The notes: generated by a model from the letters alone, not told the origin. A stretch of DNA of 64,000 bases from Yuukianura sp. NJ FZ-2021 (GCA_046563655.1 CM102284.1:3472001-3536000), one strand, 5' to 3'. Positions 3,508 to 33,292 are shown, numbered from the stretch's first letter. A program made the numbers and translations.

Positions 3508-5276
3508 CTAACCTACTTTTTTTGCAATGGATACTGGAGTTTGTTTAGTTTTGGGTAACTGTATGTCCTCTCGATGTGCCAATGGATTTTCGCTTTCACG
3601 TTCTTCCAGTTCCTCTTCCAATTCACCCGAAGTGGCTTCGTCAATCGGTTTTCCACTGCCGTAGAAAATGTCTTCTCGGTAAATCCGATCTTTCCTTCGG
3701 TATGTTCCGTGGAGTCTGTCCCACAGTTCTATGTTAAATCCAAAGTTGACATGGAAGTACTGGTGGTGATTGTCATGGAAGATACAGTCAGGTTGCCAAG
3801 GTTGCCACCACATACGCTTGAAATTTATGCCAGAGTGATCAATGATCCCGTGGTAGTACGTGTACATCATGATTAGTGAAAAATTTGCTGGAAAAATTAA
3901 GATTAGATTAATCATTTAATGTTTAATTCGGAATTCGCGTGACGTCATGAATTTACAAACTTACCCCAGTGCACTGGAAAGATATATGCTGCAGTTATGA
4001 GCATAAATTGATTGTGGACAAACTGAAATCGAAATTAGCACAATTTTAGTTTTAATTGGTGAATTAATTCTGAACAATTAATTAACTTACTTCTACGGGA
4101 TGAATTGCGGTGACGCTGAAAGCAGTTGGCTGCTTGTACGTGTGATGAAGTTTGTGGAAATTTTTGTACAGCCATGGTGTATGGTACATTCTGTGCATCC
4201 AGTACGTCACGTAGTCCTAATTACACAACGAGGTCATTCAGTTGTTCAAAAAACTACTTTTTTTTTAAATTTCGAAATAGTTTTGAAAATGTAACTTGTT
4301 TCAAAAAAATTTCAAGTAACCTGGTAAATGAAGACTACAGGAATTTGGAGTAGAAGCCAAATGTAGCCGTATTCTGAAAATTCAAAGTAGACTTTGCTCC
4401 AAGTTCCTCCGTTGAGTACATAAGTAGCAAATGCTGCCGAAATGGCACTGGGAAGCAAGAAAAACAAATTTTGTATTTAATTTTAAATTAGAATTTGAAT
4501 TTTAAAAACGTTTTCAAAAAACGAAAATTCTTTCTCATCGCTTACCTTCCAAAAACTAAGCTAATCGATCCAACCATGATTTCGTGCCGTTCTAGCTCCG
4601 GACTCAACCATTTCTTAGGTTGGCATTTCCATGTTTCTGGAGTGTGGCGTTGGCGGACATAGTAGTACCACTGGAAGTTTTATGCATATGTTATTGTATT
4701 AAACAATGTTAAAAATGTTAGCTTAACAATCTCTTTAATTTAAAACATACGTGTAGAAATCCGCCAAGTCCGAAGTATATAACGTAGGAAATGATCGTAG
4801 AAGGAATTAGTACAGACACATAATTTTTAAACCGTAGGTCAATCCAATCTTGAAAAGAATCAATCAGTTCATGCGTTTCTTCCACGTAAGATTCACTCCC
4901 ACCAGTTTGAAGATATTTCCAAAAATACACAGCAAATAGAACCCACTCTCCTGTAAAATAATTTTGTAGAATTTTATTTCTTGTGTGTTTTTTTCATTTT
5001 TGGAAATTTCGCACCTCTGGCGGAAATCCCAAGGACGAACATGGCCAGTGTTGCTAAAATTGACGTTAATCGTGGCATCTTCGACTCCATTTTGCGCAAC
5101 TTGAGATCCAGCGCTGCATTTTCACCCCAGAAAAACAATTTGGAGAAAAGCTCCAAGGTCGTTGAACTTTGACCTCTTCCATCGGTTTTTGTATTCTTGT
5201 AGACATTTTTCTCAAGGCCGTTCCTTCCACCCCCAGGGGGTTCCTTCCGATCTTCTGTAACTGGATTTGGTGTCAT
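3508..5276 (-). CDS. Sterol desaturase / fatty-acid hydroxylase superfamily membrane di-iron enzyme (SC5D/ERG3-like); 7 exons
   Basis: Exons 5276-5015, 4950-4751, 4670-4546, 4448-4321, 4216-4091, 4022-3965, 3887-3508 splice in frame. His boxes YWMHRMYH, FHKLHH, HGIIDHSG, FHDNHH, plus NFG...WDRLHGT and hydrophobic segments. Confidence 0.9.
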
Positions 5277-6237
5277 TGGAAACGACCGCTTAAGTGCAAA
5301 TTTTCAACTGTAATTAATTCTTTATTAATTTAGTTTAGTTATTTTAAACCTAGGACGAAAACTGGAGATGCGACAGAAATAATTTCCCGTTGTCCAAGCG
5401 CTGGAAGTTCATTTGAACTGTTGTCCACTTCAATCGCTGCTGCTGTAGTTATATCCATTTGATCTTTTGTTAGGACTGATAAACGACCTAATCTCGTACA
5501 ATATTCGTTCTGTTTGCCATAACTGAGATTTCAGAGTTAAACGTTAACATCAAGTGCACATGTACTTAAAAATTTGATGTCGTAGCGAATGTTGCCCCTT
5601 GAACACAAGACTTTCGTGACGTCGCGTCGTGGTCACTCAGATGGCCATCCGTGACAACATTAAATAGATTGAGGCCCGGTTTTTTTTACGTTGAGTCATC
5701 GCAACTTGGACATATAATTTTATTTTGTAAAGTACCAGCAAAACTTTGTCTTTTTTTTTTGACAATTTTACACTGCTACGCTAATTTACTTAATGTAACG
5801 TTCATTTATTTATTAGTAAAATTTTAGGAATCTTTCCAATGTCAAATTTTGACAAAAGAGGTAATTTAGTTTTCGAATTCTTGACAGTTAACAAAATAAA
5901 GAAAACAAGGACAATTCCACGATTTTCTATTTTTCTTAGAAGTGTAAATTAATGTAGAAGCTGAAATTGATGTGGGAAACTTTCTAGAAAGACTTTCTCT
6001 AAGTTATTAAAGTACAATAGGAGCAACTGACTCCGGGACACACTCATGGTCAAGGTCAAGACATATGAAGGATGCATTGGATGAATTTTACTGAGAAACT
6101 GAAACCGATTTCTGCTGACGATGATTACCATACTTATGAGTAGTACGATATTCGGAGTTTTCAAAAAAAACTTCATTTCTAAAACTTCCTTTCATTTCTT
6201 CAGTTCGGAAAGAGACTTCGAGTGTTTTACTAAGAGA

Positions 6238-7780
6238 ATGAAAGTGTTAAGTTTAACTCCAAACATTTTCAGAGGAATTAACAACGGCCATTTGGAAATT
6301 CCAGTACACTTTGTTCAAAGTTCAGAAATATTTCAGAATTTAAGAACTTTTTTCACTTTGTCAAAATTTGTTAGCGGATTGCCCTACGTCACACTAAAAG
6401 AAAGCAATGTAATTTTATCTCCGGGAATTTGTAGTTTGACCTCTTTGTGGACACTTTTCCTGTGTCTCAATTCGATTGTGCCTTTGACTTTCTCGATTGT
6501 CAATGCAGAAGACTTTGTTCGCAGATCAGGGTCAACTATCATCCTCCGAGGTCATGTCACACTTGTCTACTTGGCCAGTTTTAAATTTTCGGCTAGACTG
6601 GTTAGAGCAATTCGTGAAAGCCCATTGGTTGAAAAACGGCTAAAAATCTACACAGAACCAAAAGATGTTGGGCAACTTCGACGCCATTCGCTAGTGGTCA
6701 TCGGTGCATACGTTTTTTTGGGAGTTGGTTTGACCTTGACCTCAGTCCTGCTTAGTGTACTAGTGAATGCACAGTCTGTGGAACAGAGTTGGGCCAACTA
6801 CTCCAAATTGACCTGTGACCTTGACCCTGACGCAATATTCCATATGACCTTGACCAACTCTTATTGCATTGTGTCCACTTTTATAACATACTTCGCCTGG
6901 CTCTTTGGTGACTTTCTCCTGATGCTACTTTCTCTCATCTTTACTTCCCTTTTTGGACGATTGGTACGAGGGGTCAAAGGGCTCGAACCGTCCAGATTTA
7001 CTGTATTTGAAATTGATCTAATGAGAGAACATTTTGGAATTCTGTCGAAATTGATTCATGTAAGGTTACGATTTCTTGACCTTTGACCTAGCGGTTTGGC
7101 AATAATGGAAAAATGCTTCGGTTTTTAGGATTTTGACAGCAGTTTGGGACTGCTAAATCTGATTTCCTGTTTCTTCAATATTTCGTTCATTCTGATCTGC
7201 GGATATTCAATTGTTTTGAATTCGCATCTTAAAAAGACAGTTGGAACCCAGTACTGGAACGCAGCTATCTACTGTGCAGTCGCCAGTACAAAGCTTTTCG
7301 CCGGGCTTTTCATGGCCTCTCAACTACACTTTACGGTAATTTCGACTCAACTTTGAGAAAAGTAGTAATTTTCTGGAGACATTTCATAAATGCTTTCCTT
7401 TTTCCTGTATTTTAGGCTGGACAGGGTGCGGTTAGCATCAAGTCTTGGCCAATGACCCGCGACTCTCATGAATACTCTATGAATCATCCAAGAATTTGGA
7501 TTGTAAGGAAGTTCAAAACATAACGTCAGCCTAACTTAACCTGAGTTAATTAAACTTTAGCCAAGCGCAAACCTAATGGTTTCACAGCAAAACCTAAATA
7601 TTTGTTGGTTTGCAGATTCAATCTTTTCTTGTCCAATTATCAATGGGTCCAAAAACTGGATTTTCAATCTGGAAGTTGATGAAGATCAAGTTCAAGGTCA
7701 TGCTGATGATTCTAATAGGAATTTGTTCCTTTTTGGCATTTGCACGAATCACAACCTCCACTTGCTCCAGAACGAAGTGA
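6238..7780 (+). CDS. Divergent gustatory-receptor-like 7TM chemoreceptor (start codon uncertain, may lie upstream to about 6121)
   Basis: Long multi-TM first exon ending 7059, then exons 7129-7335, 7416-7502 and 7616-7780 joined by three phase-0 introns near the C-terminus, a layout typical of the arthropod GR superfamily. C-terminus IQSFLVQLSMGPKTGFSIWKLMKIKFKVMLMILIGICSFL resembles the GR TM7 region. Confidence 0.7.
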
Positions 7781-8036
7781 CACGGCTGAAACCACACAAC
7801 TAAACGTGCAATTGGCAGTCCAAGTAATGTTACTGGTATTTATTATCTATAGCGATACTGAATTTTAGCCAATATGATTAGTGTTGTGGAACTTTGCCGG
7901 TACACTTTGATCTATAAGGTTAACAGCAGTTACATGTCATGAATCTTGAGTCACACCGACTGACTCGTGTAAATACCAATTACCCCTCAGCACATGCGCA
8001 GTTTCTCGTAAGTGACTGTTTTTGGCCACCCAATTA

Positions 8037-11000
8037 TCAGATGGGAGGTGGCTCATCGTAGCTGTAGGTCACGAGTGACTCAGCACTGTCACACGTAGGA
8101 ATGAAGGTTAATCGACAGATCAGAAAAACACCGAAGAGCATCAGAAGGAGGGCAAAAGTTTTCCGAACTCCTCCCCACGTTTGTTGTGTGTTCCAAGGCC
8201 AGTTAAATTCTCGCAGAACTGTGTCGTAACTTTCATACACAAACCTAAAAATACAAAATTCAAAAACAGTTTTTTGAAGAGTTTTCATTTCAACTTGCAG
8301 TATTTTAATTACTCGATTCATACCTGGGGAAGAATCGTCTATCTGCCTTGGGTTGACGAAGGCTCAGTTCAAAACATGTATCAACCGTGTTTTGTTTTGG
8401 TCCCAATAGGCGCTGCAAGATGTGTGTATCTGATCTACGTACGTTGTAAAAAAAACGTCCAAATCAGCACCAACATACATAATTTTGAACATAATTTTGA
8501 ATTTGTGTTTACATGAAATTTTCGAAAATTTACCTTTCTCCAGCGCCCTTGTAAGTTCTATCGGTTATTTTAAAAGGATGACGCACCTAGGATAAAAAAA
8601 GTAGAATTAGCATTTATGAATCTTTAAATGTTTAATTATTCATTTAAATGTTTATTTAAATATTTAGCATCACGTTGTTTTAATTGTGACGCTTCATTAG
8701 CAAGCAAGGGGGGTTACTGCAAAAGGAGGAAACCCAGAAACTTACCGTGCCGTTGCGTGTGAAATTTCTGTCAGTGCTGCATGTAGTAGTAATTAAATGT
8801 TAATCGAAAGATTGGGTTAGTTAAATAGACACTAAAATAATTACGGATTTTAACAGGTTTATCCCTCAAGGTGAGCCACACACTGTGGCCCACACTTATG
8901 CAACCCATAGCCATTAATTGAGTTTAAAAGCACGACTACTAACGATTCAGCTTATCATTAACTACATTTGCCGGATTTTGAAGATTTTTATGATTTAATT
9001 AAAATTAATTACTAATTAATTAATTTTACCTCATGATTGTTATTGTTGTGAATTTGATTCAGATTCGTTGTAGTCCTTTTCTTTGGAAATTCAATCCCAC
9101 GCTCTTCAAGAATTTCTCTAATGAAATCAAAATCGTTTCACTTTATAGCAAAGTTCAAAATCAGTTGAAGAGAAGAATGTGGAATGCAAATGCAACTTAA
9201 TTTGAAAATACCTGGCCAGTTGGCGTTCCTCTTCAAGATTTTCACAGACAGTGTTTAGAATTCGCACATACAGCACCATTACTTCAATCATTTTGAACAC
9301 TCTTCGCACAACATCCAGTTTTCCCGAACGCTGTTGCAAGGGAAATTAATAGCAATAATGTAATGATCCCAACATAAACATTTTCTTCTAACGGTGTACC
9401 TGAGCTGCGCAATCCAAAGAGGTAGTCCGAAGTTCAATTTCAGCTACCCAGTTTTCTAATGAGTTGCACAACTCGCGAATATCACCCGGTATTCGTTCAG
9501 AACGTGTTTTCTGTTAAAAAAAAATCGGTTGTGTTTACCCGTTAGTGATAAAGCAAAATAAAAAAGTAGCGAATGAATTTACCTGTATTGTTTCTTTCAA
9601 CGCGGATAAAACTTCGCCTATCCGCAGTTTGGCAGTTGAATGCTCCATTTTAGTAATTGCGGATCGCCCGTCCAATTTGTCGTGATCCGTTCGGAACGTC
9701 GTAGCCAACTCTTCGAAGCGTTTCTAAAAAAAACACACACGTATTGGTACCACATAAATGTAACCAACCAACGAAAAATCAATTATTGTTACTTACTTTT
9801 AGGTCTGGAAGTTCGTCAACATCCCTGGAGAAGGAAATTAAGAGTTACGATATTCACTTGAAATAATTTTTATCATTTCCAGGTTAACTTACTCTACTTT
9901 TTCTTGAGACGTTGAATCCAGGTACTGAAAAATAGTTTTAGCCAGAAATGGAAATTGTTCACAGTAGCCTTCTGCAACCTCGTCAAGATCAGTTTTCGGT
10001 GACGCCTTGCAGAATGCACCTTCTTCTGTGTCATCCTCTTGGCCGAAGCTTTTTTTGAACGTTTCCATATCAACTTGATCCAAGTCTGCCCTTAGAGTTC
10101 GCCACTCCTTTCTGGAGAGAATCGCTGCATCCGAATTACACGAGCGCATAGGAACATCGTATGAATACCTAAAAGTAATAGAAGTTCCCAATTTAATTTA
10201 GTTAGTTGAAAAACAAGATTCCATTCATGTTGTAAACTACAAACTTGAATAATGCAAACAAATCTAAAGTAATCAAACAAAACCTCACTGTCTCATGTGC
10301 TCCTGGTCCTCGTCTGGAATTACTCCAACCGACGCACTACCTTGACGATTGTCAATGGGCAACATTTGCCAACTTGGTTTTGGCTAAAAAAAATTCAACA
10401 CTGTAAGAATGAATGTCAACCACTTTTTGTACTAATCCACGCGTAAATCACACTAACCTTAATACTACGACCACTGGATTTGGAACTTCTACCACTTCGT
10501 AGCACCGAATCTGGTCGACCAACGGGGCTACTGTCGTCCAATAGCTCTTCGTAATTGATTGGAGTTTTGTCACCGTCTTGATTCGTGAGTGTCTCCTGAG
10601 GGAATAAAACAAAAGGATGAAAAACCACAACTATAATTGGAATTTTTTTTTGTCGAATACTAGTTAAAAGTAGTCAATTAGTAGGGATTCGGGGCAGGGT
10701 GTAAGTCGTGTAGCGTAGAAATGAAAAATGACGTCCAATTATAAACTTGACTCCAATAAACTGGATCTTGAAATCTTTTTAAAAAGCAAGATCTTCAGCA
10801 GAACATTATCTTCAATGAATCAAGTCAAACAACTGCTATCTATTTACAGAATAAGTTTATGCCAAAAAGGAGGAACGGGTTGGGGCGCTCAGTATATATT
10901 TAAAAAATGCACTTCCTATAAAAAGAGCAAACCGCTAAAGCATACGGGTCAAAGCAGCATTAGAAGTAGTTGGTTGTGCAAAGTTTAAGGAAAACCGCAG

Positions 11001-13659
11001 CAGGTTAATTATTGTAGGGTAAATGGACAAATAGTACAGGGAAAGTAGACTTTACGACTGCAGAACGAAATTAGTCGTCTGTCCTCCAGTCAAGTCAACT
11101 TACTTGTGACGAAGACCCTTGAGACGGAGTACGGTAAGTTGGCGACGACGGTGAGGAAATCGGTGACCCATACGTTGTATTCCCACCGCTAACTGTGGAG
11201 TAGGTATCAGACATGTCATCTCCATTTCCGCTGGGCTCTCGGCGAGAGGAGACGTGTAGTGGACGTTCCAAACTGTTATACAAACTAGGATTTTTACTTC
11301 CGGACAACGAACTTGTGGCACTTAAGTAGTCTAGGTCAGATTTGAGGTCATCTTCTGGTATAGGTGGTGGTGGTGCTGGTGGTGGGTGGTCATCAATCGT
11401 ATTTCTCATTCGAATTAGTTTTGGACGGGCTCCCTTATCGGCACTCATCTTTCTATGAAGGGCTCCTGGACTGTGGTCACTTTCATGCTCTGATTCTTCA
11501 ATTACCGAAAGGGCCTCTGAACCTCTGAGTAAACGGAACCTGAAATCACAAATAACCTTGACATTGACCAATTTTAAAACTGACCTAGTTACGTTCAAAA
11601 CACAAAATAAGCCTTGAATTTCAGTTTTTCAGTGTAACTAAATAAATTATAAATGTTCAGCTTACTTTTACTACCATAGCCTAATGCTACGAGTCCAACA
11701 TTTGGCTAATTACAGCACTTTAAATTTTAGATGAGCTCAGCTGACTTTGCCTATAAGATGTTAATTTCGCACTCACCCATCATCATCACACACAGTTTAA
11801 CACCGACAACCGTAAAAGATCACACAGGATTTCTACAGATTTATCACATTTCCAAAACCATTTACAACAAGAAGGAGGCTGTTTCTGGATGGGCGTGTAA
11901 ACTCACTCACACCACTAACACAAATCTCTAAAAGCTTGAAATTGAACAATAGACGGTAACAACTTAAGTACATTTAGACGATATCTAACGTGCAAAGTTG
12001 TACAACCTGAGCATTAGTAAACTGACCTGGTATCGTCAGTGCCCAAGTCATCGTCCATGTCATCATCTGGAAGGTCATGGAAAATGTCTTCAGTTCTGGT
12101 TATGAGATCTTCATCCATCATGGCGGCGGTGGTGGCAGTAGTTTGAGCAGTAGATTCCATTGTTCTGGGTTCCGTTTGAGTGGCAATCGTCACTCCAGTA
12201 GTTTTTTTGTACAAGCCACTCTGTTGTGTCTGTGTCTCCTTGAGCTCAAATAGTCCTGGACAGGATTTCGTTGTATCGAAGCTGGAAACTGAATTACTCT
12301 GGATAAAAACAGATTAGACAAAAAGATCAAAGCAATAAGTTCACATGAAAAAATACTTTGAGTTTCAGTTTCAGTTCGTTAATCCTTCAGAACATGGCAG
12401 CCAAGGTCCATACACCACACGCCACAATTCATCACTAATTGTGTCTAAAGTTCCAGAATCTAGAATTTTAACAATTCCTTCTGTTTTTCCTGTTGCTTCT
12501 AATTTATTTTGACAGTTCTATTTCGGACCAAGTCAAAGAGGAGGGTAGGTTCTGGATTTCTAAATTTGGACTAAAAAGAGACAAATAGGCAAGTATTCCT
12601 AAAAGGAGTCGTTGAAATTTTAACATTCCCAGCGTCAGTATTTAAGCAACTAAATGGTGGACTACGCCTCTTAAATTAGCTTAAATCACCATAAGCTTTT
12701 AGGCCAAAAAGATATGGATAAGGGATTTCAAAATTTTTGGCACGTTTATGGCACTGTTTTTAAGATTAGAAAAAAAACTTGTCAAATTGCAAATTTAATA
12801 GTTATTCTTCTGATTCTTCTTCGGATTTTTACCCCACAAACAAAACGCTTTTGAGCGTATTTTTTTTTAGTCAAGAAATGGTTTTCCACTTTTGTTTTAA
12901 AAAAAAGTTGTTAGTTTTTTCCAAAATTCAAAATTGGAAACTGACCATTGCCTGGATTTGCTCTTGTCCACGCCTCAGTTGTTCCCGAAACTCTGCAATT
13001 TCTTCTGAAATTCTTTGTACGAGCGGGTCGACCGACACAGTTGACCCCTTGACCTCCAAGGTCATTTGACTATTTCGATTGTCATTAGTTACGGAGCCAT
13101 CTTGGGATTGGTCAACCTCCACCGTGTAGGCGATTCCAGGAACTTCGTCACAACCGCCAGTCCTGTTGACATAAGAAAAGAGAAAGAACGCTTTCATTTA
13201 CTATGCTCCTGTCAACATTTCTTTTGCTCATAATATATTTACAGGCTTTTCCGGGCTAAGCTCTTGAATTTTAAAGTCAGTGTACTACAGTGTACGTGCT
13301 CTGTCACGAAAACAATTTGACGTGTAACAAGGATTGATTTCCGGAAGTTACAGACAGGGGATACGGTATCCGGTGCATAATGTTGTAAACTGCATAAGAT
13401 GTGTAAGTGGCACATGTGGGCACGGAGCTATTATTAGACAAGTTCCTTTGAATTTTCCGAACAGTTGAAGATCTTAAAGATGCCAGGAACTGATCCATGA
13501 GACATTGGAGCAAGAGTGGTGAAAGTCAGAAAGAAAAAGTACCAAGGCGTGGCGAGTGATGACAAATTGAATGGGTTGAACACTTTTTAAAATTTGACAT
13601 CTATAACTTAACCTGAAATCTTTACATTTTGCAAGATTCATGATGAATCCTGCATTCAT
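8037..13659 (-). CDS. Tail-anchored coiled-coil protein with C-terminal TM plus KASH-like PPPI; core resembles the LRMP/IRAG (Jaw1/MRVI1) domain; about 15 exons
   Basis: Approximate exons 13659-13613 (tentative first), 13162-12946, 12298-12027, 11539-11104, 10595-10458, 10384-10289, 10168-9893, 9824-9797, 9723-9583, 9510-9400, 9330-9212, 9117-9030, 8586-8534, 8434-8324, 8244-8037 have compatible phases. The last exon encodes FALLLMLFGVFLICRLTFIPTCDSAESLVTYSYDEPPPI*. Confidence 0.72.
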
Positions 13660-14610
13660 TCAAAATTATTGTAGTAAAGTGGACCGAATTCTCATACTTT
13701 TTGGAAAAGTGTAACATTTTTGTGAGTTTGACGGTGAAAAATTGTGACTTATGTAAATTTATTTTCTATGAAAATTTTATGTTTGATTTCAATCCTGCAC
13801 GCTATCGTGAAAATGTTAACCCGCGCTTACTTGAGGAATAAAGAAAGTGAAAGTTATCGATTTTGATGCTGCTTTTGTCTGCGTAAAAGAGCGGCTACTT
13901 TCTGTAGCGAATGCAGAAGATGTGAAAACTTTCTCTCGTATTTCTCATGCTCTGTTGCAGAAAAGTATTTGAAACTACTTGAATTACTTGAAATACATGA
14001 ATTACCTTTTAGAGGAAAAACAATTTCCCATTGTAAGCTGATGTAAGCTTCAAGGACGCGAGATGTTGTGAATTACAAATGGGAAAATGGCACTGACTTT
14101 TGTGAAGACATTCACCTTGACACCACCGGAACTTTGAGGGATCTTTCAAAGCGCAAGCGGCTGGAGAACTGAAACCGAAGGCTCCGAAAAGTCCGTTTTT
14201 TCTCGGTGTTGTTCTGGTGTAGAGTAGAATATTTGTGGATGCTGCTTAAATCTTCCTGGAATGCTCCCTGACACGCACAAGCGCAAACTTAGTAACCCAG
14301 CCGAATCATTGGGAAAACACCGCAGGACCACTTTCTCTTTCAAACTAAACAATTATTACACATAGTGGGGAAGGTCTTTGCGCACACTTTAACACAACAC
14401 TCAAGTTCGAGAGGCCAAACCTCACCACAAGATTTATTTGATTCATTACTTTTAATTTTGGCAAAAGAAAAATGGCTCTGGTACATTCGAAACATTTTAT
14501 TGCTAACTGCATGAAATACATGCAAATGACTTGTATAAATTTTAAAATAAATTACCACCTACACAATGCTCTATCTGGCAAAAGCTCAACATGAAATTGG
14601 TTAGCTTAGG

Positions 14611-17050
14611 TCAATCATCGTTTATGACATGGACGAAGTGCCCGTTGGGTGGAACCGGACTTGAACTTTCTACGTCATCAATATTGTCCGGCATATCCAT
14701 TGACCTTGTGTCAGGAAGTGTAAATCCTACTCCCGCTGCAGCAATTGCCACACACCCGAACAGTATGACTGGCAAATTGTCCATACCGGCGGTACTCTGC
14801 TCAAGGTCAAAGCAAAATGTTTGCATTAATTTTTAGACTATTCAACGAAAGTTTATGCAATGTTACCTTAATGTCAACAAAGTATGGAGCCACCATGGAT
14901 CCAAATCGACCAACGACAACTGCAGATCCAAGTCCGGTGGTTCGTATTGTCGTTGGATACAGTTCAGCTCCAAGGAGATAAATGATTGCAAATCCACAGG
15001 AAACAAAAAGCTTTCCGCACAAATTGAGCAGAATCCGCGTCGTTTGAAACTCTGTTGAAAATTTCACAGTCAAAATTTCCGAGCTTTATAGTTACAAATT
15101 TCGCAATTTCCATACCGAATGGCGTAAAGGCTAATCCAAACAGTGCTAATGCCGTTACGAAGAAAGATGTGATAATGACAAATTTTCTGCCGTATCTCGA
15201 TACAATCGGAACAGTAATTCCGCAATACGCTGGCACTTCCATCAGTCCGCTAAATTCACACCGAATTCGAATTATTCCAAGTTTAGAATTTATAAAACAC
15301 ATTTTGAAATTGGATTTTTTGAATGCAAACCTTAGAAAAAACAGAACATAGGGATTCCGAGGCATTCTGACGGACAGAAAAGACAAACCGTAGTAGATGA
15401 CAGTTACTGAGAAATATAGCGTCCAAAGTGCCAGACTGCGATTGCGCAACTTTGCGGTTTTGAGCAATGAGTAAACGTTTGTCAGCGGAGCTTGAATGGA
15501 TTTCCAAATGCTAAATTCCGTTTGTACAAAGTGTTTTTCACGACACCCTTCCAGAATTATGCGTAGTTGACCGACGTTTGGCTTCTCCCGACTATTCACC
15601 CGTGCAACATCTTCTAGCAGCTTAATGGCATCATCCGTTTTTCCACGGGAAGCTAACCACCGACATGATTCTGGTAAAATCCTGTGAAACAAAAGAAATG
15701 TGAAAGGTCAAAGGTCAAGGCATTGCACCAACATAGACTTACCAGACGTATGAGAGTAGACTTAGCGCTGAAAGTGTGAATGCTAGTTGTAGATGAGCCC
15801 AGTCACGAAAAAAGTACGCCAGTACTGGAATTAGCATCGATCCAATTGCAAATGGCAACTGCTCAACCACACCTAAAAGTGCTCGACAAGAAGGCCCCGT
15901 GTATTCTAGTACTAAAATGGAAAAAGTTGACAAAAAATGTTGAATGAGGAGAATTTTTACTTTGGATTCTTTTTAACATAAAAGTAACTTACGTAAAACG
16001 TAGCAACTTTGAAACGATCCTGCAACTCCGACGGCTAGTAGAAACCGAAACGTCACAAAAACTGAATACGTTGGAGCAAACGCCGCAGCAAGACCAGCCA
16101 GAACCACAATCGCAATAGCAGCCAACGTGATTCGTCGTCGACCAAACACCCTGCATCAAAAAGTAAACCAAATTTCAACATGTGTATTTGAAAAATTGCT
16201 TAGACTGTTTAAATTTTTAAACCTGTCAGATAAGCTGGAAAGAATCAGCGATCCAACCAAGACTCCACCCATATACGACGCTTGAATTGTAGCAACCAAA
16301 GGGCGTCGCTCACAAACCAAGTCAAACTACAATTAAATCAGTTTTAGGTGATTGACCTTCGCCTGACTTCTAATTAGTTTAGTCTGACTGACCTTGGATA
16401 CAACAGTGGACTGGTAAATGGAAGTGTCGTAAGTCCATTTGTCACATTTAGCAACGCCATCGATATGTTTTTGGTCTTCTGCGCTCTTCCAAGCGTCTTC
16501 AAAGTCTGGATGCAATTCTAAAAGTTTTGTGTAATTCAAGTCGTAGTAGTAACATTCGTTCCATTCTGATTCTCCAGCTTCATTGGAAATTCTGGAAACA
16601 AAAGTTCGAAATGTTTTTCCAGATGCACTGAGGACTTTAGATTTCGACTCACAAATTTACTGGAATCGAAATATTTCGAATTTGTTCTGCCGTCCAGCCG
16701 GAATTGCCCAACTCATCAATGGCACACCAGTGCTTAGGTACGGCTCCCAGGAAGACAAAACCGAGATGGTGAAAGGTCAAGACCATCATCTAGGAGTCAA
16801 AATTTGTTGTATTTTAGTTATTATTTTATTATTTTAGTATATTATTTTATGTATTAGAGTATAATTTTAAACTGTTTAATTCTAACTAGTGGACCTGAAT
16901 GCTAACGATGGCCAGTAATCGCCATTGGTACAAACCGCGACCTCCGACATGCTGAAACACTGCGTCAAATCCTCTGCAAGTCGGAGATGCCGGTGGAGTT
17001 GAACATGAACTCATCGCTGCTCGTTTGAATTCGAAGCTACTTGAAGACAT
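14611..17050 (-). CDS. SLC22-family organic cation transporter-like MFS protein (Orct-like); multi-exon
   Basis: ATG at 17050 (MSSSS...FDAVFQHVGGRGLYQW), extracellular loop CDKWTYDTSIYQSTVVS, SDRVFGRR, PESCRWL, SRYGRK, AELYPTTIRTTGLG and terminal LPDTR motifs across GT-AG exons. Confidence 0.92.
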
Positions 17051-20000
17051 TTCAAAACAAATCCTAAGAATAAATGTAACTAAAGATACACTTCTCAGAT
17101 AACGAACACTACACGAGTTAATTAGTAGCTATAATTGAACTCGACTACTGAGGTCACTTGACAATGACCTTCAGAAGATCTCTTGTTAGGAATGGACAAT
17201 ACCAGTGAATATTTGCGTATTTACTTGTACAATGGTTTTTGAATTGACGGGAGTTACAACTGTGAATTCCAAATGACAATTAAAGATCCCAATGAATGTT
17301 TGGTAAATGCAGAGTCTCGTTTTCCTTCATGACGAGAAGGAAATGCTTGCGTCCGCTGTTTTACTATCGTTAGAATCATCTTACAGCATTTCTCAATCCG
17401 ATGATGACACATTAGGGTAGGGTAGTATTTAGGACTTCTTAGAACTTAGGACTTTAGGCTCTCTTGATAGTTCAGCAAAATCATAAAGTTTGTTTTAAAC
17501 ACAAAGTTGTTCTAGTATTTCTAACAGTTGAAGTGTCATTGCCATTGTCATTGTCACTCGCCGGCGCTGGTTCCGATCTCAAAGAAAGTTTGAAAATGAA
17601 GTTGGGAAACATTATAAAACATTTTCATAACTACTTTCATTGTTTGAATTTATTTCTTTCAACCCGAAGTTCCCGGAATTAATTTAGTGTCGCTTGACCT
17701 TGACCTGACATCGACATTTAAGACATTTTATGTCCTTCCTAGAACAAAATTGAAGCGTCATTTCATGTAGTACCATCTCTCGATGGCAGGAATATGTTTC
17801 GACAAACTTTTATATGGTTTGGCATCATACCGGGCGATGGCGCGTAGAAGTCAAATTTTGACTAGAAATGACGCTGGAAAAGTCAAAGAGAGGAACATGA
17901 AAGACGAGAGATCTGGGAGCAATTTAAAACTTCAGCAGGCATTTATCATCCCGAAGTTTATTAAATTTTGATGATATTATGTTAGATATGTGCTTTTTTG
18001 AAATAAAAAAGTTACAATAAAGTGGTAAAATTAATACATGCATAGTACATTCAGTGAATATTGCGATGCGGGAAAAAGTAACCTAAGATGGCCAAAACTT
18101 TCCAAAAGATTTAGTTGAAAGTGAAAAGAATCGGTTGGAGCTGTTGATGTGGTTGAATTAATGGAGTGTCTTGTTCCTCTGGTTGGAATAAATTGAAGTT
18201 GGACTTAATTGGAAGAAACAGAGTTAAGAAGTCTCATTTATTCTGGCGCTGTCTCCTTTCGTTTCTTCTGAATGTGAAAACAGATTTATGGCACTTTCCC
18301 ACCCCATAGTTACTCCCTCAAATGCTCCCTCTAAACCATCCACAAAAATAAAATCCATCATCAATTCCCTCTGAAACTGCTGTCACCCACCTTTCTCCTT
18401 TTCACTTTCATGTCTCTAAAGTCTATCAATTTTCTACGATTTTCAAAAACAAAAATCCCGACACATTTCGAAAAACTAAAATTTTGTCGTTTTTTAGCAC
18501 AAAATGTACGCGGAAACTCTTTTCCGGTTGTTTAGAAATGGTGAGAGGTGGCAATTTTTCAAATGGGAGAATGGCTTTCTCTTAAAATTTGAAATTCGAA
18601 CAAAAGAAAGTTACGGGAGACGTATTTGATGTAAACGACACCAGAGAGAGTCATAAAGTAGGGAAATAATGTTTCACACGTAGGTTCCGGAGTAGTCAAT
18701 TAAAGGTTGTATCGAGGGGCTTTTGGAGCCCAGAAGTGGAATATAAAATGGATGTAGAGTACTTGGAAGTTTTTTGTCCCTGCCTTGATGCTGGGGTGGT
18801 TATGACTCCTTTTCCCCATGAAAATAGTCGTAACTTAGACTCAAGTAGACTTTCACCGGCGCAGAAAGTGGAGAAAATTGGCTCATTTTTTAGCAGGCTT
18901 TACGTCCTCTCTCCTCTGCGTCACAAGTGACAATTTATATGCGTGTAATTTGATCCCTGGCCAATTCAATGGCTGAGACAGAACACGCTTTCCTGGAACG
19001 TTATTCTCCATTCTTTCAACCACGGAGAGGCAGTTAGTGAATAACTCAACGTTAAGGTTTGGGCAGGTCTAAGAGACATGGAGGAAAGCCTTCCTTGTCT
19101 CCACAGATTCACTTACGACAGCACAGACGACATCTCCCCAAGATTTATGGAGCACCACGCAAAATCCAACGGAGTAAATGGCTCTTTATCTCTTCTTTAG
19201 CATAGACCAGAGCGCACCAACTTTCACCAAATGGACTAATGCCACTTTCTCCAAAAAGAATTATTTTTTACAGTTCCAAGTTTACCGAGCTCAAACTGAT
19301 GAAGATTTTCTACAGCGAAGATCTTAATTTTACTGTTCAAAATTTTCTATAACTTTTGAATTTTATAGTGAAAGTTTCAATTTTTGCCCAATTTTTTCCC
19401 CATGAAATGTCCAAGCTGCAGGCGCTTACAAGTGATTAGCAGAATTTGTGATTAGCAGAATAAAGTGACTAGCAACCTAATTTAAGCTAATACATTTGGC
19501 ATAGTTTTAGCCTAACGTGAATTAATGTTAGGTTTACTTTAAGTTAATCTAAAACGTTACAAAATTAATGTGTTTGACTTTGCAATGTCTTTTGTTATAA
19601 TTTGAATGTGAAAAACGTGATGGAGGATCGTTAAGGAATTGGAATGTGGAATTAATCTGTTTGAAGTGTAATTGTGATCTAAATTCATTAGGTTTTTTTT
19701 GTCCATTCTTCTTCTTTGGATTTTAATTAAAACTGTTCTTCTTCACACCTCCCTTAAGTCAATTGAGGGAGATCACTTAAGATGTATGGCTTGACGGTTC
19801 GAGCCCTTGAGATTCTTCTGCTTCGGAGGGAGTAACTATATACGAGAGCGGAGTGAGAAAGCGACGGGATGAAGGAGAAAGCTCAAGATCCACTTCAATT
19901 TGCTCATCCACTTCCACACTAATTCCCATTTCCCACGCCTTTGCCAACGACTGAGTCATAAATTAGACTGGGACAGCACTGTTTTTACAAGAGACCACTT

Positions 20001-20478
20001 CAAGGGCCCCTCCCCCTTCAAACTCAAATTATGCAAGGATGAGGTACTACTTAAAGCAAAAAGCATGAACGTGATGAAGGACACTGCGACGTTTGTAGGG
20101 GCCCTTAACTGTATGTAGTAAGTGACCTTGTGGAAGATCATGGTCAGTTTTTCGAAGGTTGTTGCTGAGAATAGAATACAAAGGAATGACCAAGGCTAAA
20201 AATGTTATCAGCTAGGACAACAACAAGGAGGCAATGATCGCCCTTGGTCCCTTGACAGTTCAACTTCAAAACGAGATTTGGTTTGAACAAACTTGAAAAT
20301 ACCGGCAGACCTTCAAGGGCCACCGTCAGTTTGTTCAGGTATTTAAGGAACTGGCCACTGGAAACCAAAATTTAGAAGCTGTTTGCCTTAAGCGTCGTTG
20401 GGAGTAAGGACTCAGCAATAACAAAGTTAAATATTTCCTATTTCCATTAAGAGTTAACAAAAACAGGATTTTGTCACG

Positions 20479-22368
20479 ATGAAGGTAAGTATTTAACAAA
20501 AAATTAAGCCCGCATTGTATTCTGAGTTAACTTAAAAGTATTGGAAGCAATCCGTAGCAATTTTGAAAACCAAGAGAAAAAAAACGAAAAATTTCAACAT
20601 TCTTACAAGAAAGTTTCAGAAATTAATTTTTTCTTGACAGAACATGCTTTGCTTCCACTCAAACTTTATCTATTAATGGATCCGAGTTCCAAAAAAGAAA
20701 AGAAAGTTAAATTACAAAAATAAGTGTTTTGAATTACGGTTTAATTGATTTGAATTCAGCAAAACTTAAATTTTGTTTATGTAATTTTAGAGCTTCTTCC
20801 TGTTTTCCATCATACTTGTGTTGGCTATACGAGCAGGAGGCTATCACTCATCGTACGCTGCATCTGACTACGGATTGTATCGCTCACGTTACGCTGAACA
20901 ACCAGCGCCAACTCAGAACAACTCTGTCGAAGCGCCGAAACCCACGGAAGCTCAAAAAGAATACAAACAAAACATTGTGTCAATTGGGGACAAACCGATT
21001 GGAGAAAATACCACGAGCTCTGAAACCGGAAGCAACTATACCAACAGTTCTGGAAACGAAACCGGTTCGGATGTCGGTAAGGACACCATCACCTCCACCA
21101 ATGAAAATCAAGCTAACACGAATACCGATTCTGGAAAAAACAGTACAACATCGACAACAGTTTCAAAGTCCAGCGTTGAAAAGACTGTCAAAGTTGGGAA
21201 CGAAACTACAACTAAAAACGAAACAATTATCAAAACCGGTTCAGAATCGAAGAATTCCACCTCGGTTGCAGATGAAACAAAAGACGATTTTCAGATTGTA
21301 GATTCCGAAAGAGAAAGTAGAAAGCTTGAAGCTCCGCTCAAAACAGAAGAATCGACGCACCACATTCAGTTGGACAAAATTGAATCCAAATTAACAAATT
21401 CTACAGTGGATTACGAAGTTATCCGAGAAATGCTAGGAACTTTGGTGGGTCCAAGCAAAGCTGCCGAAATTTTACCAAAAACGGACGATGATGAGAAAAC
21501 TATGCTCCAGAAAACCAAGCGATCAGTTGATCCTGACAAACTGGTCAAACGCAAATTGGATGACTACGAACTCAAATTCCTTTTCAAAAGTTTAAAACAA
21601 GCCAGTAAGAAGGATTTGAAAAAATGGAAAAACAGGAGCAGACGCTCTGCATCAAACTATTTCATGAATAACGATTCTCCAAGGAGCCAACTTCCAGAAC
21701 TGATTGTTCCGCCGGGCGCAAGCTTCACCCAAGTTCCAGCAACGTCATCCGGCGGATCTTACTACGTACCGGCTGGAACTGCTGCCCAAGACAGTCCGGT
21801 ACGGTCTGAAACATTCCGGTACGCAGTGAGGACAGCTCCTTGCGACACTCCCACTGCCACTAGGTTCAGATCCAGTGCCGGAAGTTATGCCGCTTCGACT
21901 CCACCCGTCCGATCTTCATCAAAATACTTGACCGACCTAAGCGATTTACCAGTTTCCCGTGAATTTCGAGGAATCGCGACGCCAGAAGTTCGGGTTAAGA
22001 AAACCACTCCAACAGCGTTTCGAAAAGTTACGGTAATTGAGACATTCTTGGAACCAATGTCAGACGAATCTGAAACGCGGGATTTCCGAACCGGATACAA
22101 CACTCCGTCCGATGAAGTTCAAACTTTTGGAAGGTCATTGGCCGATTCCTATGTTGCTGAGAATGTCGCTGCTGGTTCCAGCGTGCCCATTTTGATGCCA
22201 AATGAAACGCCAATTCGAATATCTTTTGATGAAGGTGTCATCGGTAACACTCGACGGTACAGACGGTCTCCAGCGTCAATGCCCAAGGACATTTCAAAGC
22301 GTCGAGTGCCCATGGTCCTGTCCACGGTCAGCAGAAGCACTCGTAGCGGTCAAAACGGCCCGCTCTAA
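20479..22368 (+). CDS. Orphan secreted protein, about 527 aa, Ser/Thr/Asn-rich with several furin-type cleavage sites
   Basis: Two-codon first exon ATGAAG followed by GTAAGT (20479-20484), spliced to 20791-22368, gives signal peptide MKSFFLFSIILVLAIRAG and a long uninterrupted ORF. No recognisable domain. Confidence 0.8.
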
Positions 22369-22546
22369 TTAAATAGCATCTTTTACAAGTATTTCAGTAT
22401 AATCGATGGCAGGCTCATCTCTTTCATAAATAATTTTCAATTCAAACGTTTTTTAGAATCTGAAATATGTTTGTATTTCAAAAGAATGCCAAAATAAATC
22501 AAAACTGTCAATTTTTTGAAAACTGTATTTCCAAATTACGATCACA

Positions 22547-23656
22547 TTAGACGTAGTCTTTGAGAATAAGAAAAAATCCAAACGCTGCCACGGACCCATC
22601 AACTATTGCAAGCAAAAGGCAAAATGCTGCTATGGTTGAAAGGATTTTAACAAATTTCCTTGTTAGAACGGTGAAGCAACCCTGAAATCAAAATTGACAC
22701 TTCAAAAAAGAGGTATTCTCGGATTTTTTTTTGAGTAACTTAACCTGGGTATGTATAAAACGATCGGCCTTTGGATGGTCCGGTAAAAAATTCTGACCAC
22801 AGAACTTGTTTTCCAGTTTTTCCGAAACATTTCTGTAATAGTTTTTCACAAATCGCGTTGTGTTTAGGCAGCATGAGGGTGGAACACGCAGACTCGTCAC
22901 ACCGAATCGTAGTGTCTGCCAATCCTTGTAACTAAGAATTCCGCAGCACTTTTTCTGGATTCAAAATTTCAAAAGTTTGAATTTTGGAGAAACACTTTTT
23001 CATAAAATCAAATAAGCTCAAAATTTACTTGTGACTGGAGGTCTCGGACAAACCGAGTTTCGTTTTTATCCAATCTGAGTCGTTCCATTTCGCTCTGTAT
23101 AAGATCACGGATCCACATGATGGAACCATACCTGGACAAAATCGTGCTTCCAACCACTAGCATCACAATTGAAACGACGAAGATCATTGCTGTCAACTTA
23201 AGAAATTAGCAACAAGTTAGGCTAGATTGTATTAAGACTCACTCGCAGAAGTATTCCGCTGCGCAGCTACTTACGAGCATAACAATTGCCGGAGAGTGAC
23301 GCCTTTTGACGCTGTAGAATCCTAGACATGCAGCCAATGCTCTCACTACGACTGCGCCGTAGATCCAACGTTCCACATCTTTCGCCCTCTCGGAGTCATG
23401 CCCGTGGAGTTCTTCCGCGAGCGATGCCTGGAGTTTGCTGGTGTATAGAGTCATTCCCAACACTACGGTTAAAATTACCTGTTTTAAAAAAATCAGGAAT
23501 TTCAAACTTTTTTTAAAACTTGAAAATTTTTGAGCATTTAAAAATTCCAGATAGTACCAGGGTCGTTATATGAAATAGAACTATAAAAACTTGTATTCTG
23601 TGACTTAGGCGTCGGAAGCAGCCTTTCCTCTTATTCTTGCGATATTTGCTTCTCAT
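22547..23656 (-). CDS. Divergent tetraspanin; 5 exons
   Basis: Exons 23656-23558, 23478-23275, 23196-23029, 22954-22745, 22681-22547, all phase 0. Four hydrophobic segments; large loop with KKCCG, VPPSCC, FCG and QGC (6 Cys). Confidence 0.85.
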
Positions 23657-30329: not shown

Positions 30330-32394
30330 TTAATTTTCTAGGATTTTGACCTTGAGAGAATATGGTGGTGGGTTGAGCGTAATTGACGGCTTGATTGGTA
30401 CAAATGACGGTTCTTTACCGTCGATTTTGACGGTTTCAAATTCAAAATGTCTTAGAATACCCGCTGTCACCATAAACATTGTCGTCATGGCCAAATCTTC
30501 TCCTGGACATATTCTTGCTCCTACACAGTTGAAAGAAGTGACAAGGCTTAACTGATATGATAAATATTTTATAAATTACGTTACATTTAACGCCTGATTT
30601 CCACTTACCCACTCCAAATTGCACGACACGTTCCACCTTTGATGGATCTAGAGATCCATCGGGCATGAGCATGCGCTCCGGTCGAAACACTTCAGGGTCA
30701 CCCCAATACTTCTCATCGTGGAATATGGAGTAGTAGTTTGGAAATAAGCAACTACCCTTGGGTATTATGTAGTCACCATAGTGGATGTCCTCCTTCGCCA
30801 GGCGTGGTAGAGATGACGGTGCAAACGGCGCATGTCGCATTGTTTCCAAAATTGCTGCGTGTATGTAAGGCATGCTGAGTAGACAGAGAGCCAGGCAGAC
30901 AAAGGGAAAGCGTCACTTATATAATGTAGCTACAAAGGTAGCAATTTAAAAAAAGAACTTTCTGTGTAACCTGGACAAAGCAGTTGCTGGAATTGGACAG
31001 TCAGTGCTCCCAGTGTACTTTGTGATTTCTTCGCGTGCTCTGTTTTGAATTTCTGGAAAAACTGCCAAGTACAGTAGAAGCCAGTTGAGAACAACACTTG
31101 AAGTGTCGGCTCCACCGGCGAAGATATCCATCAAAATTAGAACCAATTGCTCTTCTAAAAATGTTTTCCAAAATTTTAAAACATTTTTTTTTTAATAAAA
31201 TTAAAATGAATGATTGCCTAGCCGTACCACTTAAGGTTGAATTTGGTTTCTCGATTTCATCAAGATAGGCTTCAATAAACGTTTCGGCTTCTTTCCGATC
31301 TCCACGTCTTTTCCTGGCTTCTTCAATTAGTGCCTGCAGATTGCATTCTTTTTAAAAAGAAGAATAGGAATTGACAAAGTATTTGAGTTCTTACAAAAGT
31401 AAATTCACGACATTTGCGCTGATTATCGCAAACCTCAGCGTACCCACTCCATTTTGGGAACACCGTGAGAAATGGGAATGCACTTGAAAGGTTTTTGGGG
31501 CCCATGGCCTCGAAAAACTCATAGTGCAAGTCTAGATGGCGCTTAATCCGATCGGAGTTAGGATCAAAGCGGACGCCACCGACAGAAGCCCATATGATGT
31601 TGATTTGACATGCGCCCAAACGGTTCAAACTAACTGCCCAAGTTCCGTTGGACTGTTCGACCTCCTTCCGAATATCTCTGACAAGGTCAGTGACCTCAGC
31701 TTGAAAAGTGTTGTCCATACTTTGCTTTTTGCCGAAACCTAGTTGGCGCAGGAGTTTAAAAGTGAACTTTCGTTGCTTCCTCCATTCCTCGCCACGGGCC
31801 CATATTATACCTTTAAACAAAGTTACATTTGCAGCAGTTATTGGCAAGCAGACGAGTCAATTACTCAATCGGTGAGTCAATTTACCAACGTTTTTGTAAT
31901 TCGCTCTGTCATCACTGAATTCGAAAGTATACCGCTCGAGATTCGTTTCGGTTCGGCGGAAGATGTCTCGAAGGGCTTCGAAGCTCGAAATAAGGACTGT
32001 TTATGGGAACAACAGACGTTTTAATGAGTTTTACAATTTCGAAATTTGTCTTAAAACTGTTTCGAAAAAATTTACCAGCGTAGTGGACACCGTAGCCGAA
32101 TGACACGACGTCGCCGTATTTTTTCGCTAAACCATGGAACTGCAGATGAGGGAACGAATCGATCATCATCAGTTGCGGAATGCTTCCGAGTAACGGGAAT
32201 CGAATTGGTCCTGGAATTATCAAACATGGATATAAGTTTACAAGCTAGTATTGCTATTAAATTTTTAAACATATTTTAATTTAACTCTTCATTAATGATT
32301 TTACAGTTTTACCAGTGGGTAAACGTGATTTTTCATATTTCCACATCCAATAGGCAACCAAAGTAATGACAACGAGCAGTATTACTTGAATCAT
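30330..32394 (-). CDS. Cytochrome P450, CYP2-clan-like, copy A; apparently intact, multi-exon
   Basis: N-terminal anchor MIQVILLVVITLVAYWMW, GPIRFPLLGS hinge, WRKQRKF C-helix, AGGADTS I-helix, ETMR K-helix, FRPERM meander and heme motif FGVGARICPGE (split by an intron). Splice phases are consistent. Confidence 0.95.
31684..31696. promoter_or_regulatory. Perfect IR1 palindrome AGGTCA-G-TGACCT (EcR/USP-type element) inside a P450 A coding exon
   Basis: Read directly from sequence; function not demonstrated. Confidence 0.4.
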
Positions 32395-33292
32395 GGCGTC
32401 GTATTGCTTCAGTTCCAGTTAATTCGGCAGTGATAGAAAACTAATTAATTTATTACTCCCAGCGAGATATTCACTTGCTCTTAAAATTTTAGAGCACTTT
32501 TATGGAAATGAATTCTAATAATAGTATGGATGCTTGAAAATTTTCTACTTCAAGAAAGTTTTTGTGCAAATGTAGCATGATTGATAAAATAGTATGATTG
32601 ATAGTGGAAATGATGCAGTTTGCGTTGAAGGTTGTTGTGATTGCGAAATGGCCACTTCATCATCATGATCTTTGTACCGGGAAACAAACGAATAGTAAAC
32701 CAAGCCTTTAGTTTTATAGAAACTTTACACAGTCCTCAGTTCGAAACTGCGTCGGGCCACAACTCTTTTTTAGTGTTTTATATACAACACGCCAGTGTAG
32801 AGTAATGCTAGTTAGATGAATCTTTGCTACGTTCATCGTTGAGGAATTAGTCTAAATCACTTTAATAGTAGTTATTGGCATGGCTTGGTTTGTAGCGGTA
32901 ACTGAAGTAGCTTTTTTTTTTACAAAAATTAATTCTAGGTCATTTGAATTTGTTTAGTTTGAATCTTGGCGTTGGGTATCATTTTCGCTTTTGGGCTTAA
33001 TTTTGTTTGGGATCAATTTGAGTAGTCTCCTGACTCATTGACTCAAGTGAGATCGACATCATTATAATTCTTACGATCTCCGACTTTTTCGGAATTTTCG
33101 TTGCCTTTAAAAATTTTTTGTCTTTTTAGGAATTTTTTTTTCTAAATTTGGTTTGGTAACTTGTTGAAGAAATTGGAAGGAATCATGTGAGAAAATAGCT
33201 GCTAATTTGGTGGTTGTGATTCGTAGTGGGACTTAATATATGCCTTAACTGTAAGCGGCATACACGGCATTGCAAACGGCACACAACATATT

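Follow-up and report, generated by a model that had tools for sequence, protein, structure and literature searches.

Gene model, homologues and protein layout

A stretch of 64,000 nucleotides from Yuukianura sp. NJ FZ-2021 (GCA_046563655.1, CM102284.1:3472001-3536000), hereafter the window, was analysed around a multi-exon gene on its minus strand, which runs from position 13659 to position 8037 counted from the first letter of the window. A sequence-only reading had described this gene as a candidate LRMP/IRAG-like KASH protein of an invertebrate. The best explanation of its product, favoured here with moderate confidence, is a tail-anchored protein of type II topology that is laid out like Jaw1/LRMP and would act as an LRMP-type (KASH6-like) KASH protein.

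Exon ends were set by a coordinate script on the minus strand, starting from the stop-to-stop frames of 7800-14000. The rebuilt model comprises 15 exons, and all 14 introns are bounded by GT-AG with consistent phases, giving a coding sequence of 2340 nt and an open frame of 779 amino acids.

The stretch from exon 9 to exon 11, with introns of 72 and 69 nt, lies in a single frame, and the in-frame read-through of these exons (P0001, with X at stops) was used as a query against a representative set of 1.84 billion proteins. Five proteins were found at E<=1e-3, of which four were exon-sized fragments (55-78% identical) and the fifth was P0006, with 338 amino acids. A search with P0006 returned only P0007, and a profile search with alignment A3, from which the exon 7 fragment (misplaced by MAFFT) and P0004 and P0005 (intron-derived tails) were left out, returned only P0008 among the matches listed. 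P0008, with 1144 residues and 88% identity to P0006, comes from the springtail Allacma fusca, where it is annotated as an 'unnamed protein product'. Exon 7 used as a query in the homologous-protein search found nothing, and look-ups in the ESM Atlas with P0006 and with the last exon were uninformative.

The spliced model was then compared with P0006, P0007 and P0008 using phmmer with Z set to 5.77e9. The score against P0008 was 291 bits in total, made up of a collinear domain in which residues 60-656 of the model align with residues 464-1046 of P0008 (265 bits), plus a second segment (residues 715-758) across the exon encoding the transmembrane (TM) helix. Scores against P0006 and P0007 were 108 and 106 bits. 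In a metagenome contig from a closer relative (L001), exons 11-15 and their splice phases are retained, and homologous sequence covers the last part of exon 11 (85% identical over 20 residues), exon 12, exon 14 and exon 15 (67%).

Support for the individual exons is as follows. Exon 1 (13613-13659, 47 nt) is a candidate that carries the ATG previously taken as the start, together with a GT donor and a phase that fits exon 2 (12946-13162); an alternative start is an in-frame ATG at 13197, in the exon 2 open reading frame (ORF). No homology support was found for exon 1 or for the first ~40 residues of exon 2, and the alignment with P0008 begins at residue 60 of the model. Judged from splice signals and homology, exons 2-15 are supported, and exon 1 and the start codon are unsupported. 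AG/GT boundaries flank exons 2 to 6. Exon 3 (12027-12298) was matched by tblastn with P0008 residues 487-532, exon 4 (11104-11539), a disordered region with short conserved motifs, with residues 596-670 (62 bits), and exon 5 (10458-10595) with residues 710-724, while exon 6 (10289-10383) lies within the collinear alignment with P0008.

The conserved C-terminal half starts in exon 7 (9893-10168), which aligns with P0008 from residue 783 and with P0006 from residue 1. Exon 8 (9797-9824, 28 nt) has AG/GT boundaries and a fitting phase, and the peptide across the exon 8/9 junction is present in a single ORF of P0003. The helical block is encoded in three parts by exon 9 (9583-9723; KRFEELATTFRTDHDKL...), exon 10 (9400-9510) and exon 11 (9212-9330; ..KMIEVMVLYVRIL..). 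The first part is 55-65% identical to the fragments P0003, P0004 and P0005, the second aligns with P0006 and P0007, and the third is 78% identical to P0002 and holds the string IEVMVLYV, which is kept in P0006, P0007 and P0008. Exon 12 (9030-9117), a stem region with a terminal Asn run, aligns with P0007, P0008 and L001. Exon 13 (8534-8586, 53 nt) has AG/GT boundaries and is poorly conserved, L001 having a 56-nt exon in the same place and with the same phases whose peptide lacks similarity. The frame-neutral exon 14 (8324-8434, 111 nt) encodes a peptide that is conserved in L001 (HILQRLLGPKQ identical) and absent from P0006, P0007 and P0008, so that this exon may be lineage-specific or alternative. 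Exon 15 (8037-8244), the last, encodes the pre-TM motif NWPWNTQQTWGG (8169-8204), the TM helix (8100-8156) and the tail (8040-8099), which ends in PPPI (8040-8051) before the TGA at 8037-8039; motif and helix are conserved in P0006, P0007, P0008 and L001.

Between exons 12 and 13 lies a further 31-nt candidate exon with AG/GT flanks (8746-8776, minus strand). Placed after exon 12 it leads to an in-frame TGA after one codon, and the product would lack the TM helix and tail, so that its inclusion would give a soluble isoform or make it a poison exon.

Two length differences from the window mark the tail region of L001 (950-1000, plus strand, against window 8040-8100): 2 nt are missing directly behind the conserved Cys, and 6 nt are inserted further downstream. 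Because of the gap, the contig as assembled stops 6 residues after the TM helix and ends ...FMPRCGH; the other frame reads ...YSHNQ, and the downstream DNA is still similar. This frame change may reflect a misassembly, a pseudogene or a genuine truncation. The L001 frame problem and the stop that the candidate exon at 8746-8776 would introduce are the points in favour of reading the model as something other than an expressed intact gene, either a pseudogene or a chain of exons from different transcripts, with the TM exon separate from the helical block. Such a reading is very improbable in view of the 14 GT-AG introns and the open 779-residue frame, the collinearity with P0008 over about 640 residues, and the presence of helical block, WPWN motif, TM helix and tail in single ORFs of P0006, P0007 and P0008. 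The one-piece alignment with an annotated springtail protein and the splice phases shared with L001 make the locus more than a chance chain of ORFs. On splicing deduced from sequence and homology, it is a real protein-coding multi-exon arthropod gene, and the nearest named relative of its predicted product is the springtail protein P0008 of Allacma fusca, to which alignment identifies it as orthologous.

The first 400 residues of the predicted protein are rich in Ser (13.5%), Asp (9.5%), Thr (8.8%) and Pro (7.2%), and about 470 residues precede the helical block. A single stretch exceeds a Kyte-Doolittle value of 1.6 over 19 residues (residues 735-763, peak 741-759), and it is followed by a tail of 20 residues (760-779), which carries Cys762 and ends YSYDEPPPI with the stop codon immediately after. 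The disordered Ser/Pro/acidic N-terminal half, helical block, single hydrophobic segment and YSYDEPPPI end claimed in the sequence-only reading are thus all present in the rebuilt model; its last exon (8244-8037, with the TGA at 8039-8037) is the same, and the strings it quoted from the helical block were located in exons 7-11 (9212-10168).

Helicity was seen in an AlphaFold2 model, built with alignment A3, of the orthologue P0006 and not of the window protein. The mean predicted local distance difference test (pLDDT) score of this model was 59.6; residues 54-201 were helical (pLDDT about 70-80), 202-249 disordered, and 274-301 formed a TM helix. A type II layout appears as a single C-terminal TM segment (741-759) with a short tail in the window protein and as a modelled helical block in the orthologue. 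Directly before the membrane anchor sits a strongly conserved pre-TM motif, RE[LF].WPWN..QTW.G[VI][KR], in which W-P-W-N, Q-T-W and G are invariant in P0006, P0007, P0008 and L001. In exon 4, the motif HRKMS (11443-11457) aligns with HRRMS in P0008, and HR[KR]MS is a candidate PKA/PKG-type site, a kinase role that we infer from the motif.

Candidate LRMP/IRAG-type and KASH5-like coiled coils

The relationship to LRMP and IRAG was assessed with the Pfam family MRVI1 (PF05781). P0006 matched this family with 31 bits (cutoff 27), residues 78-202 aligning with profile positions 180-303, and its precomputed database annotation also lists PF05781. MRVI1 was the sole family found for P0006 at E<0.1, with no generic coiled-coil families alongside. 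The C-terminal 362 residues of P0008 matched with 27.4 bits (cutoff 27) on profile positions 184-301. The part of P0006 that matches MRVI1 is the part aligned with exons 8-11 of the window. In mouse Jaw1/LRMP, an intrinsically disordered region (44-183) is followed by a coiled coil (194-333), a disordered stem (334-469), a TM segment and a luminal tail (PMC7804115), and the matched profile region (~180-303) roughly corresponds to the coiled coil of that description. By transitive homology, the window protein is probably related to LRMP/IRAG.

The Pfam scan of whole P0008 also brought out KASH_CCD (PF14662), with 39.8 bits and E = 6e-10, below the family cutoff of 43.3. Residues 121-297 aligned with profile positions 9-188 of 191, and no other coiled-coil family was found at E<=1. 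According to PMC3787381, zebrafish Fue/Lrmp is an LRMP with a KASH5-like N-terminal extension, and an ancestral gene that later split has been suggested there. On its profile matches and predicted segments, Allacma P0008 is built in the combined Fue/Lrmp layout, with an N-terminal coil, an MRVI1-type coil, a TM segment and a tail.

Several results weigh against the LRMP/IRAG assignment. None of the 10 exon translations of the window, which are fragments only, matched MRVI1 at E<=10, and the read-through of exons 9-11 (P0001) matched no Pfam family. P0007 reached 13.2 bits (E = 0.036, profile 239-317), which is sub-threshold, and whole P0008 gave no MRVI1 match at E<=1. The two passing scores are marginal and count as one lineage, because P0006 and P0008 share 88% identity. 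The LRMP/IRAG-like block of the sequence-only reading accordingly stands through the relatives P0006 and P0008, and finds no direct match in the pieces of the window itself.

These same observations (a single lineage scoring 31 and 27.4 bits where the cutoff is 27, window pieces without a match, a sub-threshold P0007 and a whole P0008 without MRVI1) would also fit a tail-anchored coiled-coil protein that is specific to this lineage and has no relation to LRMP/IRAG, the MRVI1 matches being coiled-coil noise just over the threshold. We consider this improbable. Noise of that kind is at odds with MRVI1 being the only family at E<0.1 for P0006 and with the recurrence of the same profile region in P0006 (180-303), P0008 (184-301) and again P0007 (239-317). 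The whole architecture and the C-terminal ending also agree with LRMP as far as it is described in the sources cited here, and the additional KASH_CCD match of P0008 gives the combination known from Fue/Lrmp (PMC3787381).

The C-terminal tail

LRMP was shown in PMC3787381 to be an authentic SUN-dependent KASH protein, and the cloning primers given there decode to a human LRMP ending in NGPPPV and a KASH5 ending in PPPPV. LRMP residues 531-555 served as the KASH6 core in PMC10827754, where H549 of the 555 residues is stated to occupy the site that is a tyrosine in other KASH proteins. The last seven residues are H-N-G-P-P-P-V in human LRMP, Y-D-E-P-P-P-I in the window protein, H-E-E-R-P-T-L in P0006 and P0008, and H-I-K-V-P-H-F in P0007. 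The terminal PPPX is thus present in the window protein as PPPI and closely reproduces the LRMP/KASH5 ending. The window protein has a Tyr at position 7 from the end, where P0006, P0007 and P0008 have a His, with the spacing seen in LRMP, and all three intact tails have a Pro at position 3 and end in a hydrophobic residue. That every intact tail keeps H/Y, P and a hydrophobic residue at positions 7, 3 and 1 speaks for constraint at the very C-terminus. All four tails contain a luminal Cys, at a varying distance from the end (18th, 26th and 27th).

Other observations run counter to a KASH function. PPPX is kept in none of the three independent relatives, the Allacma type ending ...ERPTL, P0007 ending ...KVPHF and L001 being truncated. 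The last exon (68 amino acids) matched no Pfam family at E<=10, KASH (PF10541) included, and PDB sequence searches with the last exon, P0001, family profile A3 and P0008 returned no KASH, LRMP or KASH5 chain. The Cys of the window tail is the 18th residue from the end, a spacing that is not that of nesprins.

The principal rival is an IRAG-like protein resident in the endoplasmic reticulum (ER), whose tail anchor does not bind SUN and whose PPPI is a lineage-specific accident. The luminal tail would then serve only membrane targeting or retention, and the work of the protein would be cytoplasmic, for instance scaffolding on ER channels, among them the IP3 receptor. The absence of PPPX from all three relatives, a tail that varies among relatives in sequence and in length (20 to about 35 residues) and the lack of a Pfam KASH match fit this reading; in PMC10298018, moreover, IRAG1 is an ER anchor and the luminal region of Jaw1 is also needed for ER targeting. 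On the other side, a PPP with a hydrophobic end and a Tyr at position 7 reproduces the LRMP/KASH5 ending (PMC3787381, PMC10827754), a PPP alone has by composition an estimated probability of roughly 0.06^3 and is unlikely to arise by chance, and the three-position pattern is kept in all intact tails. An ER anchor of this kind is the less likely explanation and a stronger competitor than an unrelated coiled-coil protein.

The KASH reading of the window protein is plausible on its tail sequence. The TM segment and 20-residue tail ending in PPPI claimed earlier are real, and no Pfam KASH match accompanies them. The expectation that orthologues would keep the PPPX terminus fails in all three independent relatives, with a weaker LRMP-like pattern kept in its place. 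The data agree with the proposal that the protein is distinct from Klarsicht and Msp300.

In the favoured explanation, the protein would be inserted post-translationally into the ER and the outer nuclear membrane and would oligomerise through its helical block, as in Jaw1. In this species the free C-terminus Y-D-E-P-P-P-I would plug into the pocket of a SUN domain in the perinuclear space, which would make the protein a KASH protein of the LRMP type. By analogy with the family, the coiled coil may bind the IP3 receptor, and the conserved HR[KR]MS site may serve in regulation. Any role in Ca2+ release, in meiosis or in the movement of pronuclei is speculation.

Comparison with known systems

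The closest likeness is to Jaw1/LRMP (IRAG2, 'KASH6'), a type II tail-anchored protein with a disordered N-terminus, coil, stem, single TM segment and short luminal tail (PMC7804115). The coiled coil of the orthologue matches MRVI1, and the window ending Y-D-E-P-P-P-I parallels the H-N-G-P-P-P-V of LRMP. Unlike Jaw1/LRMP, the window protein has no direct Pfam match, its N-terminal region of about 470 residues ahead of the helical block is much longer, and related arthropod sequences do not retain PPPX. The luminal tail has 20 residues against 39 in IRAG2 (PMC10298018), and it contains a Cys, whereas LRMP and KASH5 are both described as lacking the conserved KASH cysteine (PMC3787381).

The likeness to Fue/Lrmp and to KASH5/CCDC155 lies in the coil combination of P0008, and KASH5 also ends in PPPV (PMC3787381). 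The KASH_CCD score of P0008, however, falls short of the cutoff (39.8 against 43.3), and its N-terminus showed no obvious EF-hand-like motif by eye and none in the Pfam scan. The window, in contrast to Fue/Lrmp, has no counterpart of P0008 residues 1-470.

IRAG1 (MRVI1) belongs to the same Pfam family as the orthologue. Like the predicted window protein, it is anchored in the ER by its tail and has a coiled coil, which in IRAG1 binds IP3R-I; IRAG1 is called an ER anchor protein in PMC10298018. The basic-X-Ser motif HR[KR]MS of the window protein, a candidate cyclic-nucleotide kinase site, is a further likeness. No PKGI-beta docking region was identified in the window protein, however, and its candidate phosphosite does not flank the coil in the way described for IRAG1. 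No KASH role is described for IRAG1 in the sources used here.

With nesprin-type proteins (Klarsicht, MSP-300, ANC-1), the window protein shares a C-terminal TM segment and a short luminal tail ending in PPPX with a nearby Tyr; it differs from them in having no PF10541 match and no spectrin-repeat or other similarity. The Tyr of nesprins lies one residue further from the end than the corresponding residue of LRMP, and the Tyr and the Cys of the window tail are both spaced differently from theirs. Its tail of 20 residues is also shorter than the ~30 residues of KASH domains (PMC10827754).

Upstream region, neighbouring genes and significance

The upstream region was scanned for a 5' part comparable to the N-terminal coil of P0008. 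No counterpart of P0008 residues 1-470 was found in the window by tblastn, the three read-through frames of 13660-22999 showed no KASH5-like 5' part in Pfam, an ORF composition scan of the upstream region gave no coiled-coil-like ORF on the minus strand, and the Pfam scans of the window exons contained no KASH_CCD. Consequently, the window gene is either an LRMP-only form or one whose modelled 5' part is incomplete, with further 5' exons lying elsewhere. Immediately upstream, also on the minus strand, is an exon of a Sugar_tr/MFS transporter-like gene (14967-15707; 22.4 bits, cutoff 22.3), which limits the space for extending the LRMP-like gene in the 5' direction. Several coiled-coil-like ORFs at 492-2501 (weak match to DUF2046 at 15.6 bits, below cutoff) are on the plus strand, convergent with the LRMP-like gene, and belong to another gene.

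Further features were recorded elsewhere in the window. A 327-residue open frame at 6103-7083 (plus strand) matches Pfam Trehalose_recp (gustatory receptor family) with 32 bits (cutoff 21), which is consistent with an arthropod genome. An exon at 3511-3915 (minus strand) matches Pfam FA_hydroxylase with 35.4 bits (cutoff 31). At 20791-22365 (plus strand) there is an uninterrupted Ser/Thr-rich open frame of 525 residues with no Pfam match at E<=0.01. Two tandem cytochrome P450 copies with near-identical exon peptides (e.g. ...IHYGDYIIPKGS.LFPNYYSIFHDEKYWGDPEVFRPERMLMPDGSLDPSK...) occupy 30442-34805 (minus strand), and within this pair the ORF 33296-34126 scores 108 bits on Pfam p450.

LRMP/Jaw1 and KASH5 are treated as vertebrate KASH proteins in PMC3787381, PMC10071310 and PMC10827754. 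No description of an invertebrate LRMP, IRAG or KASH5 homologue was found in the literature searched; supplements and database family listings may already hold such members. Family membership is already detectable by Pfam in the orthologue, and all functional claims are ones that we infer.

The KASH5-like N-terminal coil in the Allacma orthologue supports the idea of an ancestral Fue/Lrmp fusion architecture. A broader proposal, unlikely on present evidence and put forward tentatively, is that springtail-type arthropods retain an ancestral adaptor of the Fue/Lrmp type, joining a KASH5-like dynein-adaptor coil, an LRMP/IRAG coil that binds the IP3 receptor and a SUN-binding tail. If this were true, the KASH5/LRMP system would be older than vertebrates. 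The PPPI-ended protein of the window would then, as an LRMP-type KASH protein, join Klarsicht and MSP-300 as the third of its kind in arthropods, and it could couple nuclear-envelope mechanics, or meiotic or pronuclear movement, to Ca2+ release from the ER. An arthropod family with the LRMP architecture and one PPPX member would offer a tractable test of an ancient LRMP-type KASH function, and its tail variants PPPI, RPTL and VPHF a natural series on the requirements of the SUN pocket.

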